DNA from: a bacterium
GTDB lineage: Bacteria > Acidobacteriota > HRBIN11 > JAKEFK01
Assembly: GCA_022616075.1 (NCBI GenBank)
Contig: JAKEFK010000211.1
Coordinates: forward strand, 14,164 to 78,163
Length of the DNA stretch: 64,000 bases
Direction of reading: 5' to 3'
Positions 10,435 through 17,565 of the stretch are shown here, piece by piece (within the stretch, counting starts at the first letter, position 1; each line of letters starts with the position of its first letter). The position numbers and the translations under genes were made by a program. A model generated the notes under the pieces. It was not told where the DNA came from. It searched no databases and worked only from the letters and a program-made list of their open reading frames with translations.

Positions 10435-10516
10435 TTTCACCGCAGAGAACGCAGAGGCCGCGGAGATAAAACAAAATCTTTTTTTCTCTGCGATCTCAGC
10501 GCTCTCGGCGGTGAAA
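10435..10516. repeat. Inverted-repeat element with 32-bp triplet-repeat arms
   Basis: TTTCACCGCAGAGAACGCAGAGGCCGCGGAGA versus reverse complement of 10485-10516: 26/32 identical, 18-nt AT-rich spacer. Confidence 0.88.
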
Positions 10517-12493
10517 AATTGAAAGGATTTTGTCGCCGACTTCCGTGCGATCCACGACATCCATTCCGGAAATTACTTCACCGTAAATCGTGTAGTTCCC
10601 GTCTAGATGGGGTTGGCGCGATTGCGTTATGAAGAATTGCGATCCGCCTGTATCCTTGCCTGCAATGGGCATTCCCACCGTTCCGCGTTTGTAAATCAGA
10701 AGATTCACCTGATCATGGATCACCTTTCCTGCTCCGCCCCAGCCATCTCCCCGCGGGTCGCCGCCCTGTATCACGAAATTCGGCACGACGCGATGAATGC
10801 GAAGTCCATTGTAAAAACCGCCGTCAGCTAGTTTCCTGATATTCTCGGCGTGCAACGGCGCATCGCAACCTGACAAACGGATCACGACATCCCCTTTCTC
10901 CAGTTTCATCGTGATCTCAATGGAATCTTGCGGCCGGCCGAAGTCCGGTGAATATTCATTCATTTTTTTTGCCGGCACTTTTCCTTGCTGATAAAGAAAA
11001 TCTTCCGGATCCTTCGGATCGCCCTTCCAGTGGTATTGTGTTCCGACAAGTTTTTTGATTCCATCGATCGCATGGCGGCGAATTGTGTATTCGGGATCCA
11101 GCAGCGCCCGCTCAAAAATCGGCATAGCTTCAGATGTATTGAAGTCAGCCAGAACATCGAGAAGCGCCACTCGGCCTTCCACTTCAGAAGGATCACTGGA
11201 AGCATCATAAGTTTTGATCAATGCAGCGAAAAACCTGCGTTCTTTTGTTTTGCCCAGCGCATCGACCGCTGTGGCCCGTAACGCAAAATCCTTATGACCG
11301 AGCAACGGCAGGAAAACCTCAGCAGTATCAGGCAAGTATTTCGTTAAAGAATCGAACGCAGCCAGCCTGACAGCGGAATCGGAATCCTGACTCAGAACTT
11401 TCAACATAGGAATTGCCGAACCGGCGGGCAGTTCAACAAGCGCCTGTGCGGTCCTCCAGCGCACCGTCCAGGATTCGTGTTTGGCTCCTTCCTGCAACAA
11501 CGACAGCGCATTCTCTTTTTGTGTCTTTGCTTGAGCCATAATCCAGCCACCGAGCAAACCCGCAGTAGCCGGACGTTCGTCAATTACACATCCCAATAGG
11601 CCCATTGCTTCCAGAGCTTTCATTCTGGTCAGATGGTTCATTGTGCTGTAGTGTTTTTGAATAGCCACACACGCAGTTTTATCATTAGAAGCGCCGATTA
11701 CATCCAGTGTATTTTGTTGAACTCGCGCATCTTTATGTTGAAGCAGACGTTCAACTTCTTCCTCTGTCAGCGGTTTTTTCATAGACCACAATGCTTTTAA
11801 AGCAAACAACAACGCGGAAGGATCTTCTGTAGACGGACTGGGTAACGGATTTGCAAGAACCTTGTGCAAAACGGCAAGGGAACGTTCGTCTGCCAAACGA
11901 TACAGAGCGTACACGTAACTCCATTGCGCCGGATCCTCTTCATTGGCCAATTCGATCAGAACATCCACGGTGCCTTTGTCTTTGATCAAAGCAAGAGCAA
12001 GCGCCGATTGTTCACGGAGAAACGCATTTTTGTCGCGAAGGAATGGGACCACCAAAACTGTCGTATCCAATCCTCCGATCCGGCCGATCGCCTCAATCGC
12101 AAGCCTTCGAACTTCCGCATCCTCATCTTTCAATAGACGCGCTGCAAACAATAAGCCGTTCTTGGACCGAATCTGTCCAATCGCAAACGCAACGTATTTT
12201 CTCACGTTAGCATTCTTGTCTTCCAACAACGGTTCCAAAAATGGCAGAATCGCTTGATTGCCGATTCGCGCTGCGGCCAGCAATGCTCTAATGCGAATCT
12301 GTTCTGATGGAAAACGAAAATAATCGGCAAGTTTGATGTCCGGCTCTGCTTCCAACATCCGCTCATTTTCGAGAATTGCGATGATTCGCAACGAATCGTT
12401 AGAAAACGCGCTCGAAGCAAGAAACATTAGAAGGATCAACGCCAGGATTCTCCCCCTTATGAAGGGGGAGACTAAGAGGGGGTTGGCATGCAT
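10496..12493 (-). CDS. Exported HEAT-repeat protein with C-terminal cyclophilin-type peptidyl-prolyl isomerase
   Basis: Multiple HEAT repeats; FYNGLRIHRVVPNFVIQGGDP, DTGGSQFFIT, HLDGNYT. Confidence 0.9.
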   Translation of the reverse strand: MHANPLLVSPFIRGRILALILLMFLASSAFSNDSLRIIAILENERMLEAEPDIKLADYFRFPSEQIRIRALLAAARIGNQAILPFLEPLLEDKNANVRKYVAFAIGQIRSKNGLLFAARLLKDEDAEVRRLAIEAIGRIGGLDTTVLVVPFLRDKNAFLREQSALALALIKDKGTVDVLIELANEEDPAQWSYVYALYRLADERSLAVLHKVLANPLPSPSTEDPSALLFALKALWSMKKPLTEEEVERLLQHKDARVQQNTLDVIGASNDKTACVAIQKHYSTMNHLTRMKALEAMGLLGCVIDERPATAGLLGGWIMAQAKTQKENALSLLQEGAKHESWTVRWRTAQALVELPAGSAIPMLKVLSQDSDSAVRLAAFDSLTKYLPDTAEVFLPLLGHKDFALRATAVDALGKTKERRFFAALIKTYDASSDPSEVEGRVALLDVLADFNTSEAMPIFERALLDPEYTIRRHAIDGIKKLVGTQYHWKGDPKDPEDFLYQQGKVPAKKMNEYSPDFGRPQDSIEITMKLEKGDVVIRLSGCDAPLHAENIRKLADGGFYNGLRIHRVVPNFVIQGGDPRGDGWGGAGKVIHDQVNLLIYKRGTVGMPIAGKDTGGSQFFITQSRQPHLDGNYTIYGEVISGMDVVDRTEVGDKILSIFHRRER

Positions 12494-12535
12494 TCCAACC
12501 TCCCCCTAACCCCCCTCCTTCATAAGGAGGGGGAA
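12449..12535. repeat. 87-bp nested palindromic element (CCCCCTT..AAGGGGG type) inserted in a gene 5' end
   Basis: Two internal hairpins (CCCCCTTATGAAGGGGG; CCCCTCCTTCATAAGGAGGGG) in inverted arrangement around GGTTGG..CCAACC. Confidence 0.8.
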
Positions 12536-12555
12536 TCGATGCCTGATCTCTTCCA

Positions 12556-14664
12556 TCATTTATTGTTTTGGAGACGCGAAAGCGCAGTTTCGACAAATGC
12601 TTGATCATCGGGAGTGAGGGAGTAGTTACCGAATCGTGCCTTGTAAAACAGATCCGTCAAAGACGCAACATCCTCATTCGAAGGAGCCGGCAAGACCTGC
12701 GTCACTTGCTCGGCAAATTCGAAAGGAGTGGCAGCCACCGGCTTGACGAACCCCTTTTGTTGCAACAACGCCAGCATCTCCTGATAAAACAGAATCGGTG
12801 ACCGGATTAACTCCAATTTTCGCTTACGCGCTTTGTAAAAGCGAACCGCGTAATAGATGAGGCCCGGCAGCAATCCAATTAGAACCAGGAGAAGGCGATT
12901 CTGCTTCCACATCATACGCCACCAGGCATGGGGACTTGTTGCATTGCTGGATTTTTCCCGCAGAGTCTCATTCAGTTTCCTGTATCGTTCACGTACAGAC
13001 GTAAGCACGTTGATCTGATCCTGCGCAGAGAAAATCAGGATATATCTGTCCCAGAAGAAACTGATCGAATCGAAAATCTTTCGCGGGTTGATGATTTCCC
13101 AGATCGAACGGCTTCCTCCGGGACCTGCCACAGTACGAGGAGAAGGATCAAACTGAACCCAGAGACCGTTTCCAAAATAAACTTCTACCCAGGAATGGGC
13201 ATCACTCTGACGAATGGTATAAAATTCTCCGATTTCATTGTACTCACCTTCCAAAAATCCATTCACCAGTCGGGATGGTATTCTAATGTGTCTTAACAAA
13301 AGAACCATCGCGGTAGCAAAGTATTCACAATGGCCCATTTTCTTTTTGAAAAGAAACTCGGAAACCGGATCCGTTGCTGATCGCGGCAAATCGGTTGTCG
13401 TGTACTGGTAATTCTTCTCAAGATAGGCCTGAACCAGCGCAGCGCGATCGTACTGATTGGTGGCACTACCTGTGATTTGTTGAGCCAGTGTCTCAATCTC
13501 CGGATTTCGTGATGGCAGTCTTACGAAATGGCGGATACTTTCTGTAGAATCAACCTGCCGTGATCTCAACTGTTCCGGAGAATAGACATTGATTTGACTG
13601 TAAACAACGTAATGTTCCGGTCTCCCCATACCGGTCAATGTTCCATTTACATCCCGGCTCACTGCAAAGAAATTGCCGTCGACTCTTGCGACTCGATACT
13701 GGCCAAAAATTACGCCCGAATCAATCGGAGTCAAGTAGACTTCTTGTTTCACAAGAGAAGCAGGATTATTGCCCTCTGGAGATACAACAAAAGTACTCAA
13801 AGAATCTTGAAACACAAAGTCGGATCCATGTCTGGAGACACCCCAGGACTTGCCGTCATACCTATTGAAAGCCACGCCGCGCCAATAAAAGCGATGACCC
13901 GCAGGGATTCGCTCGCCGTTTACACGGATACGCATTACTTCGCCCGTGTTTTCCTGAATCTTGGCAATATCTCCCAGCTCCACCTTCTTTGAAAAGCCGG
14001 AAACATGCTGTGTCTGATCCAGTTTCAGTCCACCAAAATATCCGAGCTGCGCGCGAGGCAAAACAAAGAAAATGCCAAGCGCAAACACCACCATTGTTAC
14101 GGTTGCAATTACGATAAATCCCCAGTAACGCGCGTGAAATAAGGAAAAAGGAAAGGGCTCGGTGGGATCTGATCTGATCCACATTTTGATCATAGTGATC
14201 GACAGGATGTTCCAGACAAAGAACAGCGAAAAAAGAAGGATCATGTAGAGCATTTCAATTTCAACGCTGAGGGCGGTAGCTGCCAGCATGCTCAGGAAAG
14301 TCAAAAGATACAGCTGGTAATAGTCTCGATGCGTTTGGAGATTAAAGAGCTTGTTGATGATGATGAAAATGAATAGATGAACCAGCGAAGGAGCAAGACT
14401 TCTTGTGAGCCAGAACCAATCTGCGAAAAAGAAAATCAGGTAGAGGAAGGAAACAATCTCCCAAAATGAGCCTCCGCGAGGACGATGCACGAAACCCAGC
14501 GTGAACAGGCTGAAGACCAATAAAATCGCAGAGGAAATCCACAATTTTTGGGTGAGCATCAGTGAGACGCCGCTCACAAAAACAAGCAAGTGAGCTCCAA
14601 ATCGCAGGGCAGAAGTTACCCTTTCGTGATTTGGATCAACAGGTTTGTTCACAGTTTGATTCAT
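12556..14664 (-). CDS. TgpA-family transglutaminase-like membrane protein (DUF3488 + TGase + DUF4129)
   Basis: N-terminal TM helices, FYWRGVAF, GHCEYFATAM (catalytic Cys), DAHSWVEVY, FDPSP. Confidence 0.9.
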   Translation of the reverse strand: MNQTVNKPVDPNHERVTSALRFGAHLLVFVSGVSLMLTQKLWISSAILLVFSLFTLGFVHRPRGGSFWEIVSFLYLIFFFADWFWLTRSLAPSLVHLFIFIIINKLFNLQTHRDYYQLYLLTFLSMLAATALSVEIEMLYMILLFSLFFVWNILSITMIKMWIRSDPTEPFPFSLFHARYWGFIVIATVTMVVFALGIFFVLPRAQLGYFGGLKLDQTQHVSGFSKKVELGDIAKIQENTGEVMRIRVNGERIPAGHRFYWRGVAFNRYDGKSWGVSRHGSDFVFQDSLSTFVVSPEGNNPASLVKQEVYLTPIDSGVIFGQYRVARVDGNFFAVSRDVNGTLTGMGRPEHYVVYSQINVYSPEQLRSRQVDSTESIRHFVRLPSRNPEIETLAQQITGSATNQYDRAALVQAYLEKNYQYTTTDLPRSATDPVSEFLFKKKMGHCEYFATAMVLLLRHIRIPSRLVNGFLEGEYNEIGEFYTIRQSDAHSWVEVYFGNGLWVQFDPSPRTVAGPGGSRSIWEIINPRKIFDSISFFWDRYILIFSAQDQINVLTSVRERYRKLNETLREKSSNATSPHAWWRMMWKQNRLLLVLIGLLPGLIYYAVRFYKARKRKLELIRSPILFYQEMLALLQQKGFVKPVAATPFEFAEQVTQVLPAPSNEDVASLTDLFYKARFGNYSLTPDDQAFVETALSRLQNNK

Positions 14665-15755
14665 ATTTCGATAATGGAGTCTTGACGCATCAGGTGTTGC
14701 CAGTCTTCCACATACAAATTGCGAGCGCCCGAACTAACAAGCCCGAGCCGTGAAGGAAACCGGCGCGAACGCAACTGAAGCACAAGCGTTTCCGGCGATC
14801 CCGGGAGCTCCAGTTTTTCACTCGAATAATCTTTTCCGTCCCATTCCGCGAGATAGGAAAGGAGCGGAATTATGGAAATTGCCGTATCAAATACCTTTCC
14901 GGGCAGTACGATTCGAGCATCAATCTCTTGTTCCCTGAAGAGAAATGCAAGAGAGGCGAGGAAACTGATCGCGGTTTCAAATACAGGATCGCGGGGCTTA
15001 TCCGGAAAGGAATCGAAGTACAAATAGAGATCGCGGCCCTGCTCCCGCTGGTACTCTTTTACGAGAAGTTTCTCCGCCTTTGCGGAGGCTTTCCAGTGAA
15101 TCTTTTTGCTCGAATCAAAGCTGTTATAGTCCCTCAAATGCAATAATTGCTGGCTATCGCCCCGATAGGGAGATTCTCGGAGAATCCCTTCTGAAAATCG
15201 AGAAAGAATGTCTTCAGAAAAACGATAGAGGTGAGGATACACCCGAACCGGTTGCTCCAGGAAATATCTGCGGATTTTCAAAAAGAAGGAGAATGGAAAT
15301 TGTGTTTGCAATTCCATTTCCTTGAGAGTAAAAACTCCGCGGCGCGAAAAAAGAAATCGCGCGTAACCGCTTGCATGATTCTGGGCAGGGATGTAGAAAA
15401 AATGACGGCTGATACTTGTGAATTTTGGATCGCGCACCGCAAAACGGATGGCAAGAGAAGGCAATTTCTTTTTTCGATTGGAAACAGAAATGTAGCAAAG
15501 CGATTGAACTCCCGCAAATAGATGATCAGGGAACTGCAACGTGGGATGCAAACCCTGCAGGATCCGGCGGCTGGCCATCCCCGATACAACGATCATTCCC
15601 AGCATCAATGAAAAAATCAGGTACAGAACATTGTTGCCGGTGTTCACCGCAGCCGCGCCGATCGCCAGCGAAAGAAGCATGAAGATCACTCCTTCCCGCG
15701 TGAATTCAACCGCAATGGGCATACGCGGCAACCGGAGCTTTATTGCAGATTGCAT
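14661..15755 (-). CDS. DUF58 domain protein
   Basis: AAVNTGNNVLYL, LRDYxxxDxxKKIHWKASAK, LLVKEY. Start may be ATG 15722. Confidence 0.88.
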   Translation of the reverse strand: MQSAIKLRLPRMPIAVEFTREGVIFMLLSLAIGAAAVNTGNNVLYLIFSLMLGMIVVSGMASRRILQGLHPTLQFPDHLFAGVQSLCYISVSNRKKKLPSLAIRFAVRDPKFTSISRHFFYIPAQNHASGYARFLFSRRGVFTLKEMELQTQFPFSFFLKIRRYFLEQPVRVYPHLYRFSEDILSRFSEGILRESPYRGDSQQLLHLRDYNSFDSSKKIHWKASAKAEKLLVKEYQREQGRDLYLYFDSFPDKPRDPVFETAISFLASLAFLFREQEIDARIVLPGKVFDTAISIIPLLSYLAEWDGKDYSSEKLELPGSPETLVLQLRSRRFPSRLGLVSSGARNLYVEDWQHLMRQDSIIEI

Positions 15756-15797
15756 ATTGAAGGGTCCCCTTTACTTTTGCAATATGCAATTTGCAAT
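15742..15797. repeat. Inverted heptamer-repeat pair (ATTGCAG/ATTGCAT)
   Basis: ATTGCAGATTGCATATTG at 15742-15759 versus reverse complement of 15780-15797: 17/18 identical. Confidence 0.7.
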
Positions 15798-15801
15798 GGC
15801 A

Positions 15802-17565
15802 TTAGGTCCACGTCAATTCGAGCTGTTTGGGAGATTTATTGTATTTAATACGCAAACTATGTTGACCGTTTTCTTTTACGTTAACAGTTATTCTTTTGGA
15901 AGCGGAAACACCTTTTTCTCTGCATACCACATGAACAAGAACATTGGTCTGTCCCACCGGAACCTGCAAGGAACCGGTGAGCTTTCCTTTATAATTACGA
16001 AAGATAAGCACTTTCTTTTTTTCTCCGGATAAACTTCCTTCAAAAGCAAGCTTATCGTTTGTAAAAATATAAAAAGATCCCGATGGAAATCCATGCTCGA
16101 ATTCGAAATCTAAAGAAGCCAGTTTGATTTCCGGAAGTGGTTGCAGCGTTACAGGAGTGACCTGCTGTATTTTTGGTTTCGGCGGCGCAGGTTTCGGAGT
16201 TTGAACGATATCGACTGGTGTTGGAGGGAGTGGCTCCAATTTTTTCTTTTCTTCCAGTGCTTTTTTCTCTACCACAAGTTCCAGGAATTTTTTTGCATCC
16301 TGATTCTGTGGATCGAGCCGCACGATATCGTTTAACTCTTTGATTGCTTTATCAAGCATGCTGTTCTCCACATACTTCATGGCAAGATCCCATTTAATTC
16401 TGATTGCATTCTGTCTGGATAATTCGGCGACAGGATCCGGCCGGTTCGATGCTACCGGTGTTTTTGGCATCCCTTCTTTATTCTCACTGGTAGATCGAAT
16501 TAAGAAAATGGAACCGAACGTTAAAGCAAGAACCAGCACGATCAGGATACCGAGGGAAGCCAATTTCCGTCTGCTTCCGATACCCGAGAGGGTCAGGTTA
16601 TGGGAGGCGGCAATGCTTTCGCGTGGCGCGCGAACTTCCCGATGTTCCGGCAACGGAGGTGGTGGTGAAGCGATGCCGGATGCAGTCGATTCCGGATCGA
16701 TTTCGCGGAGTTCTTCAATATCGCCGGTGATAGAGATTAAGTTTCTAATGTCACGGATCAGCTCAGATCCTGTTTGATACCGGTCCAGGGGATTCTTTGC
16801 AAGAAGCTTGATCAGGATTGCGTTATACGGCTCCGGAACATTGGGATTCAACGTGCGCGGCGGCACATGCAGGACATTCACAATGCGATAGGAAACGGTA
16901 TTGAAGCTGTCTCCTTGAAAAGGCCGTTCACCTGTCAGAAGCATGTAGAAAATAACACCAAGAGAAAAAAGATCACTGCGGCCATCGACCTGGGATTTCC
17001 CATCGATTTGTTCGGGTGACATATAATTCGGTGTGCCGATGAATTGTCCGCTTTGCGTCAGATCGGAGCTGGGAAGCCGGGCAATACCGAAATCCATGAT
17101 TTTCACTTTCATTCCGGGAAGGACGAGAATGTTGGCGGCTTTGATATCGCGATGGACGACCCCTTCGTTGTGAGCGTAGTTCAGCGCATCAGCCAGCTGG
17201 ATGATCATATTGTTGACGTCTTCCAGTGGCAGCAAAATCCCGCTGGCAGCAACTTCAGAGATGGTGGTTCCTTCGAGAAACTCCATTACTATGAAAGGAG
17301 TGCCTGTCTCCTTATCTTCATCAACATCAAAAATGGTGACAATATTGGGATGGCTGAGTTTGCCTGCCGCTTTTGCCTCTCTGTAAAAACGATTCAAATA
17401 GACATTCTTTTCTTCAGGCGTGACTTCAAAGGTGATCTGTATGGCTTTGATCGCGACTTCCCTTTCAATTACCGGGTCGTGAGCCTTGTATACAACACCC
17501 ATTGCTCCGCGGCCGATTTCGCGAATCACCACGTAGCGTCCCAATTTTCTGGGAATTGTGTTCAT
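15802..17565 (-). CDS. Membrane Ser/Thr protein kinase (PknB-like) with extracytoplasmic TPR-like and beta-sandwich region
   Basis: GRGAMG, VAIK, HRDIKAAN, DFG, GTPNYMSPEQ; one TM helix; Pro-rich linker. Confidence 0.92.
   Translation of the reverse strand: MNTIPRKLGRYVVIREIGRGAMGVVYKAHDPVIEREVAIKAIQITFEVTPEEKNVYLNRFYREAKAAGKLSHPNIVTIFDVDEDKETGTPFIVMEFLEGTTISEVAASGILLPLEDVNNMIIQLADALNYAHNEGVVHRDIKAANILVLPGMKVKIMDFGIARLPSSDLTQSGQFIGTPNYMSPEQIDGKSQVDGRSDLFSLGVIFYMLLTGERPFQGDSFNTVSYRIVNVLHVPPRTLNPNVPEPYNAILIKLLAKNPLDRYQTGSELIRDIRNLISITGDIEELREIDPESTASGIASPPPPLPEHREVRAPRESIAASHNLTLSGIGSRRKLASLGILIVLVLALTFGSIFLIRSTSENKEGMPKTPVASNRPDPVAELSRQNAIRIKWDLAMKYVENSMLDKAIKELNDIVRLDPQNQDAKKFLELVVEKKALEEKKKLEPLPPTPVDIVQTPKPAPPKPKIQQVTPVTLQPLPEIKLASLDFEFEHGFPSGSFYIFTNDKLAFEGSLSGEKKKVLIFRNYKGKLTGSLQVPVGQTNVLVHVVCREKGVSASKRITVNVKENGQHSLRIKYNKSPKQLELTWT

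Follow-up and report, generated by a model that had tools for sequence, protein, structure and literature searches.

Anatomy of the locus

The 64-kb window of acidobacterial DNA analysed here (all coordinates are positions in this whole stretch) carries on its minus strand a gene for a HEAT-repeat/cyclophilin-type peptidyl-prolyl isomerase, and the 5' end of this gene contains an 87-nucleotide (nt) palindromic repeat element (12449–12535). The gene (10496–12493), recognized by its open reading frame (ORF) and Pfam matches, encodes 665 amino acids (aa) when read from ATG 12493, the start from which NCBI annotates the protein (MCI0416907.1). Directly upstream lies the gene of a TgpA-like transglutaminase membrane protein (702 aa, 12556–14664, minus strand; Pfam TgpA_N, Transglut_core, and DUF4129). 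Its stop codon TGA (12558–12556, in the context ...AAT AAA TGA) overlaps an ATG at 12559–12557. The gene order on this strand is Ser/Thr kinase, a 364-aa ORF without a Pfam match, the transglutaminase and the HEAT/cyclophilin gene (12556–17565). A second ATGA overlap, at 14664/14661, joins the stop of the 364-aa ORF with the next start, and the same gene order was found in the orthologous loci L002 and L130. The region 12556–17565 looks like an operon of translationally coupled genes.

Translation of the frame from ATG 12559 gives MMEEIRHR, FPLLMKEGG, a stop, GEVG, MHANPLLVSPFIRGR, and ILALILLMFLASSAFS, that is, MMEEIRHRFPLLMKEGG before the in-frame stop and GEVGMHANPLLVSPFIRGRILALILLMFLASSAFS after it. 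The first part is a 17-codon ORF (12506–12559), the relic of the original 5' end of the gene, and its stop TAG (12508–12506) lies inside the element. The stop is followed by the Shine-Dalgarno (SD)-like motif GGAGG (12503–12499), the 5-nt spacer TTGGA (12498–12494), and ATG 12493–12491. Beyond the element the frame continues with ILALILLMFLASSAFS (12401–12448), in which translation and the N-termini of orthologues identify the signal peptide's original h- and c-region. A preliminary description of the locus had listed the ATGA overlap, MMEEIRHR, the 87-nt palindrome, the TAG, the SD motif, and ATG 12493, and it was correct at every coordinate.

Inverted-repeat searches, folding, and a family alignment resolved the element into two inverted hairpin units that flank a short centre of variable sequence. 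Shared bases allow the junction to be shifted by up to 2 nt. Hairpin A (12511–12533) has the sequence CCCCCTCCTT-ATG-AAGGAGGGGG, with a perfect 10-bp stem and a 3-nt loop, and folds alone with −19.6 kcal/mol. The central stem-loop (12476–12506) is composed of GGGGGAGGTTGG (12506–12495), the apical loop AATGCATG (12494–12487), and CCAACCCCCTC (12486–12476); GGAGG is paired in its stem and the annotated start ATG lies in its loop. Hairpin B (12449–12471), TCTCCCCCTT-CAT-AAGGGGGAGA, again has a perfect 10-bp stem and a 3-nt loop, and codes for SPFIRGR, the end of the new basic n-region.

As RNA, the 126-nt region is predicted to fold with −66 kcal/mol (z = −4.7), and none of 200 shuffled sequences folded as well. 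The element alone forms one long hairpin (−56.6 kcal/mol), to which a three-hairpin form is nearly equal (approximately −55.7 kcal/mol). For the central stem alone −17.3 kcal/mol was calculated. At equilibrium GGAGG is 0% unpaired, and the AUG is approximately 100% unpaired in its 8-nt loop. A scan of positions 12200–12900 found neither promoters nor terminators, and the element is therefore neither an intrinsic terminator nor an obvious promoter. Comparison of the region with Rfam 15 at a permissive threshold gave only sub-threshold generic hairpins such as miRNA precursors, and nothing in the whole window reached a gathering score. Furthermore, translations of the element had no match in Pfam or NCBIfam, and a tRNA/tmRNA scan of the 64-kb window found none.

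The same sequence is present in a second metagenome-assembled genome (MAG), GCA_975752425.1, with 99.98% identity over 4,969 nt, and the 665-codon frame is intact in both MAGs. The sequence of the element was also recovered in Logan contigs of three sediment runs and, in part, of one cave run. These independent assemblies rule out an assembly artefact.

Orthologues, age of the insertion, and the repeat family

A search with the HEAT/cyclophilin protein returned 84 relatives, nearly all of which begin with a short, classic signal peptide. The number of residues ahead of the conserved IAILENER motif has a median of 25 in the relatives and is 37 in the window protein and 60 in P0002, the closest orthologue. 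Approximately 60 orthologues lack the insert, and their start is the ATGA-coupled ATG, with a short n-region and a short signal peptide. The claimed insertion into signal peptide-coding DNA is borne out by these sequences. That insert-free orthologues might start elsewhere, named beforehand as an outcome speaking against it, did not occur. In L002 (71% identity) the empty state is visible in the DNA: GGAAAATGAAGCATCTC, an ATGA overlap, and the peptide MKHLCVLLLMFVVANGFA followed by SEP, with the N-terminus MKHLCVLLLMFVV. L130, another empty-site orthologue, likewise starts at the ATGA overlap. In silico removal of the 87 nt from the window yields MMEEIRHRILALILLMFLASSAFS, a normal signal peptide, just as the preliminary description had supposed. 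The exact empty joint that it had proposed to look for, CATCGA^ATCCTG, was found in no sequence examined, and no joints of an empty-site allele were found in metagenomes; the empty state is deduced from orthologues of at most 71% identity.

The closest orthologue (locus L001, protein P0002, 81% identity) carries a related palindrome of 93 nt at the same junction (CATCGA^TTCC). There the reading frame passes through the element, which has neither a stop nor an in-frame ATG, and gives MIEAKRHR-FLPLIKGEVRWGLAHGAGQAPSSSPLYKGGG-LFLILLL, so that 31 residues are added. As both lineages carry the element at the same junction, the insertion must, on this comparison, be old: it predates the split between the window and L001 and is later than the split from the 71% lineage. 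For the gene pair, a ratio of nonsynonymous to synonymous substitution rates (dN/dS) of 0.11 was obtained (dS 1.05), a value that averages over both lineages. Judged by this ratio, the gene has stayed functional and under purifying selection with the insert in place. Over ungapped columns the two elements share 86% identity, compared to 44% at synonymous sites, and have thus been conserved beyond the neutral expectation. Among the differences between them are indels, including indels in the centre and one extra G before TTAG in the window copy, which brings the TAG into frame there. A look-up of the second cluster member, P0085, returned no record.

In the sister lineage the element is annotated as read through, and the window gene might likewise be translated from ATG 12559 past the TAG by suppression or recoding, giving a P0002-like product that contains the whole element. 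We regard this as very improbable, as five of 32 long ORFs in the window end with TAG, which is an ordinary stop here, the locus has no known recoding signal, and the window frame differs from that of L001 between the G run and the centre. The use of TAG at the ends of these ORFs also rules out its reassignment.

In locus L130 (2277–2297; orthologue P0007, 67% identity) a separate single hairpin, CTCCCCCTTAATAAGGGGGAG, lies in frame just past the signal peptide (GPVT-LPLNKGE-QFVDRTLPFRT). This gene's 5' end has accordingly been a target of one repeat family on at least two occasions, in different lineages.

By comparison with its relatives, the element is a copy of a dispersed, non-autonomous palindromic repeat that is REP/REPIN-like. 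Copies from other MAGs, metagenomes, and loci of a GTDB scan gave the family consensus TTCCCCCTCCTTATGAAGGAGGGGG-TnAGGGGGAGGTTGG-(6–20 nt, variable)-CCAACCCCCTCTTAAT-CTCCCCCTTCATAAGGGGGAG-AA. The window itself holds only one family copy (nhmmer over the 64 kb, 88 bits). In the sediment run X1, the depth was approximately 90 for the genome and 500–1,700 over the element, an excess of approximately 12- to 19-fold. In this run 38 further contig pieces carry the element, and four full-length copies lie on contigs of depth 83–88, which is the genome's own depth.

The family alignment (A1) comprises ten copies, the window copy and nine others. Most of the nine lie in gaps of 12–130 nt adjoining ORFs, in short spacers between co-directional genes, to which the window copy is the exception. 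No direct repeat indicative of a target-site duplication surrounds any of the ten copies, and their ends are inverted (TTC...GAA). The hairpin stems are kept by compensatory changes from C:G to T:A (three pairs, ten double-change cells; none of 500 shuffles reached that number). The element is a doublet of a unit formed by the C-rich head CCAACCCCCTC, TTAGT, and hairpin B and of its inverted partner, formed by hairpin A, GTTAG, and GGGGGAGGTTGG, with a spacer of 8 nt in the window and of 6–20 nt elsewhere. Beside the G-rich stem the copies show TTAG, ATAG, CTAG, TAAG, or CCAG; the classic GT(A/G)G head was not encountered. GGAGG is present in five of the ten aligned copies and GGTGG in four, and the length of the G run decides whether the TAG falls in frame. 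The centre is the most variable part. Position 12491 is substituted or deleted in all five other full-length copies of run X1, so that the ATG is particular to the window copy among these, and eight of the nine other aligned copies have no ATG in the centre (only L124 has one, in AATGCA). The proposed check of whether other genomic copies carry the same SD-ATG loop therefore came out positive in many copies for the SD part and negative for the ATG, and this variation rules out such a loop as a feature of the family. In another family copy (L126:696–776), located 12 nt after one ORF and open in frame with the next, an ATG lies in the hairpin loop, and the start of the next gene is similarly ambiguous.

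In RNA thermometers an SD motif lies in a stem and the AUG in a loop. The match of the central stem-loop to this layout, together with an element more conserved between L001 and the window than expected under neutrality, could point to a palindrome that evolved in place as a dedicated regulatory RNA, for instance a thermosensor or a protein-binding site. Near-identical copies at unrelated loci, both in the same metagenome and in other genomes, largely refute this explanation. Moreover, approximately 60 orthologues have no element, a stem of −17 to −19 kcal/mol within a hairpin of −57 kcal/mol is far too stable for a thermometer, and no Rfam family was matched at threshold. An origin in place is accordingly very hard to credit.

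A mobilizing enzyme was sought among 2,236 ORFs from the window and approximately 120 loci. All-versus-all clustering returned only glycosyltransferases, ABC transporters, and histidine kinases. A screen of the same ORFs for the HUH-Y1 motif found one IS200-type TnpA (in L067) and none in the window, and no protein recurs beside the hairpins. The gene in L067 (3475–3901), which encodes an IS200/IS605-type TnpA (Y1 HUH transposase), lies approximately 1 kb from a hairpin that interrupts cysS in a Falkowbacteria MAG, and is the sole such gene seen near any hairpin; its proximity is probably coincidental.

The probable present start and its translation

ATG 12493 is most likely where the gene starts at present. 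No other in-frame start after the TAG retains the n-region together with the entire h-region; both would be lost with the next ATG. The N-terminus that it opens has a net charge of +2, followed by a hydrophobic core of 11 residues. The proposal that the insert supplies a new basic n-region thus appears to stand, in the form of a net +2 n-region encoded by repeat DNA.

A third lineage is represented by X6, a soil-metagenome contig of 182 nt, which matches window positions 12412–12536 at approximately 94%, including the element and 37 nt of the h-region. Its junctions are the same, the TAG, SD motif, and ATG are unchanged, and the h-region has a single listed change, CTG to CTC, which is synonymous. 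The ATGA overlap and both the frame and the length of the relic ORF are kept as well. The flanks are divergent (approximately 35–50% alike in the 22–35 nt on either side), and the old n-region, MRRGPETQ, matches the window at 8 of 24 nt. X6 supports a conserved arrangement of stop, SD motif, and ATG and looks like a recombinant or mosaic N-terminal module.

It could be argued that the gene is dead or nearly silent in the window lineage, with a product truncated by the TAG and ATG 12493 being merely the choice of the annotation pipeline. The SD motif is sequestered in a stable stem, SD use in the window is low (9 of 42 long ORFs), and a search for RNA runs found none, all of which would agree with such a view. 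It is nevertheless improbable in light of the 665-codon frame intact in two MAGs, the dN/dS of 0.11 relative to L001 (although averaged over both lineages), the signal-peptide features of the new N-terminus, and the TAG, SD motif, and ATG kept in X6 together with a synonymous h-region change.

Structure around the ribosome-binding site reportedly lowers initiation sharply, according to de Smit and van Duin. Since GGAGG is 0% unpaired in a stem of approximately −17 kcal/mol, unaided initiation at ATG 12493 should be poor. The 'strong Shine-Dalgarno' of the preliminary description is also doubtful because an SD-like 4-mer precedes only 9 of 42 long ORFs, which leaves the SD dependence of this host uncertain. 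Its claim that the insertion uncoupled translation from the upstream gene is probably wrong: the SD motif is fully paired, and the relic ORF, which ends 12 nt upstream of the new ATG, suggests that coupling is relayed. The base of the hairpin (12535) lies beyond the reach of a ribosome that ends at the upstream TGA (12556). When the footprint of a ribosome at the UAG was forced single-stranded in silico, the SD motif and the AUG were freed and hairpin B folded alone.

Precedents for the individual steps exist. ATGA overlaps couple genes by termination-reinitiation (PMC6728339), stop-start spacings of 13–14 nt keep approximately 20–60% reinitiation (PMC10666635), and the RNA-unfolding model of coupling has been reviewed and is well documented (PMC12548453).

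Taken together, we consider it probable, with appreciable reservation, that an old repeat insertion left the gene with a new start, ATG 12493, in the apical loop and that coupling was kept by a relay. The repeat copy entered the HEAT/cyclophilin gene 24 nt past its original start, where it separates the signal peptide's n-region from the h-region, just beyond the ATGA overlap. In the window lineage the element carries an in-frame TAG, so that the old start now heads only the 17-codon relic ORF. The protein would be made from ATG 12493, with the repeat-encoded MHANPLLVSPFIRGR serving as the new net +2 n-region ahead of an unchanged h-region. Ribosomes would begin anew at the ATGA, traverse the entire 5' arm of the hairpin while reading the relic ORF, and terminate 12 nt short of ATG 12493. 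The stem would thereby open and permit either reinitiation or fresh initiation, which amounts to a relay form of translational coupling.

Several points weigh against this reading. Contig X6 is only 182 nt long at a depth of 2.6, and its flanks are oddly divergent. An SD-like 4-mer stands ahead of no more than 9 of 42 long ORFs, with a background of 9%, which makes the role of GGAGG uncertain. No RNA-seq runs covering the gene were listed. The retained ATG 12559 is not independent evidence of a relay, as its bases belong to the AAA-TGA of the upstream gene, and a 12-nt gap lowers the efficiency of reinitiation in model systems. As to the repeat, the copy number in the window's genome was inferred from contig depth rather than counted on the genome, and no transposase, whether a RAYT or another, is linked to the family among the ORFs screened.

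According to the preliminary description, the element knocked out the gene and simultaneously rescued it. This would require that the inserted copy already bore the stop, the SD motif, and the ATG, so that disruption and rescue were one event and translation no longer depended on the upstream gene. Since TTAG and GGAGG are found in other family copies as well, the stop and the SD-like motif could have come with the element. The family copy L124 has AATGCA in its centre, and the centres are so variable that the donor's centre cannot be reconstructed. The ATG, however, lies in this hypervariable centre, being altered or deleted in five of five other full-length copies of run X1 and absent from eight of nine aligned copies, and the L001 element at the same site has no stop and no in-frame ATG. 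The extra G before TTAG and the centre indels relative to L001 fit later frameshifting, and the fully paired SD motif argues against efficient independent initiation. A single-step origin is thus unproven and, in our estimation, unlikely. A stepwise route, in which for instance an in-frame insertion was tolerated first and a G run then slipped by +1, is at least as likely.

The locus offers a concrete and datable case in which a selfish palindromic repeat remodelled the 5' end of a gene rather than destroying it. The old start would have become that of a short leader ORF, the new start would lie in the loop of the repeat, and the first 15 residues of the signal peptide would stem from repeat DNA. 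The sister lineages appear to show two tolerated outcomes, read-through in L001/P0002 versus restart in the window. The case bears on start-site annotation, as starts within repeats are easily miscalled, on the evolution of signal-peptide n-regions, and on the question of whether repeat hairpins can act as ready-made modules of translational coupling in operons.

A cross-phylum hairpin unit and comparison with known systems

The 21-nt core of hairpin B was found in more than 120 loci from many phyla in the GTDB scan, a count that is a lower bound. The unit can be written as 5'-ACCCCCTC-N4-7-CTCCCCCTT-NNN-AAGGGGGAG, with the ACCCCCTC head 4–7 nt from the hairpin. Among the matches listed, this head is present on at least one side in 100 of 126 hairpins (on one side only in 93), compared to a chance expectation of approximately 0.5% per side. 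The hosts of the at least 120 loci include candidate phyla radiation (CPR)/Patescibacteria, cyanobacteria, Planctomycetes, Poribacteria, gamma-proteobacteria, Bacteroidota, and others, as well as Acidobacteria-like MAGs. Examples among loci L003–L122 are L019:2548, L067:2494, L117:6223, L052:4544, L043:4039, and L109:7439. The doublet layout recurs in MAGs of gamma-proteobacteria, CPR, Prevotella, and Dehalococcoidia. In-frame copies, which encode PLxKGE or SPxxRGR-like peptides, were found in alaS, cysS, and guaB of CPR MAGs, in a xerC-like recombinase gene, and in glycosyltransferase genes. The 21-nt hairpin is also carried by 21 IMG/VR viral contigs (L131–L151), with the C-rich/G-rich head at 18 of 22 occurrences; the unit would thus also travel on phage or prophage DNA.

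In hairpin A (12511–12533) the 5' arm contains CCUCCUUA, identical to the 3'-terminal 8 nt of 16S rRNA in E. coli (the anti-SD), and the 3' arm contains AAGGAGG. As these arms pair with each other, hairpin A resembles an SD motif paired to an anti-SD mimic. Shared descent and chance are alternative sources of this likeness to 16S rRNA and SD sequences. Hairpin ends were rejected as general donors of SD motifs, as ORF starts are not enriched 4–12 nt after the hairpin (0.002 observed per site, 0.005 in the control). In a Planctomycetaceae MAG (L027:2906–2926) the hairpin ends 3 nt ahead of the GTG that opens a prepilin-like ORF (VRKGFTLIELL...), and its G-rich arm may serve as a ribosome-binding site.

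A literature search by the literal hairpin sequence gave only irrelevant matches, and no name for the family was found. That the element belongs to an undescribed cross-phylum family, whose hairpins, should their likeness to these sequences reflect an interaction with the universal anti-SD or the ribosome, would be mobile, ribosome-sensitive, and able to rebuild starts and couple neighbouring genes, with the window as one case, is a speculative and rather doubtful extension. If they have not already been described, the cross-phylum hairpin units, which often lie in frame in essential CPR genes, are possibly the more valuable lead.

Among known repeats, the closest counterparts are REPs and REPINs. 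REPs are short palindromic units, and REPINs are REP doublets that form hairpins and are mobilized by RAYT transposases (PMC3116915, PMC2817692); in classic REPs the palindrome is preceded on its 5' side by a conserved head, GT(A/G)G (PMC2817692). The window family shares with them two inverted units that form one long hairpin with a short spacer, dispersed and mostly intergenic copies, apparently in large number, compensatory changes in the stems, and the lack of a target-site duplication. It differs in having the ACCCCCTC head and T(T/A)A(G/A) in place of GT(A/G)G. Furthermore, many phyla share much the same unit, while REPINs are described as specific to lineages and inherited vertically, and the window copy, unlike a typical REPIN, is intragenic. 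Compared to MITEs (miniature transposable elements with inverted repeats) derived from insertion sequences, inverted ends are present, but a target-site duplication was seen in none of the ten aligned copies.

With regard to coupling, the systems available for comparison are ATGA overlaps, genes VII/IX of phage f1, coat-lysis of MS2, and rpmI-rplT of E. coli (PMC6728339, PMC10666635, PMC12548453). As modelled, the window locus would resemble coupled pairs in having ATGA at the old start, a gap of 12 nt (within approximately 15 nt) at the new one, and a ribosome-binding site buried in a structure that is crossed by the upstream ORF. It would differ from them in that a mobile repeat contributes both the inhibitory structure and the second stop, and the relay ORF is what remains of the gene's own former 5' end.

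Palindromic repeats inside genes are known from Rickettsia palindromic elements (RPE), intragenic ERIC and BOX, and Anabaena MITEs (reviewed in PMC10969869). Like RPE and intragenic MITEs, the family can be tolerated as a palindromic repeat in frame in a coding gene, as L001/P0002 with its 31 translated extra residues demonstrates. Unlike an RPE, the window element is not read through, owing to its in-frame TAG; it splits the ORF and would supply a new start and N-terminus. RPE are also approximately 100–150 bp long and occur in Rickettsia only, whereas the window element is shorter and its host unrelated. The analogy is a functional one only.

Correia elements, palindromic repeats of approximately 100–150 bp in Neisseria, are co-transcribed with their neighbours and alter expression signals at the 5' ends of genes. 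Restricted to this genus, they are marked by TA duplications, integration host factor (IHF) sites, and promoter-like ends. The window element likewise is a palindromic repeat that would alter expression signals at the 5' end of a gene, but none of the TA duplications, IHF sites, and promoter-like ends were seen in it. Repeats that change expression signals are already known. What is unusual is this particular outcome, with a relic leader ORF, a putative start in the loop, an n-region encoded by the repeat, and a sister lineage that reads through.

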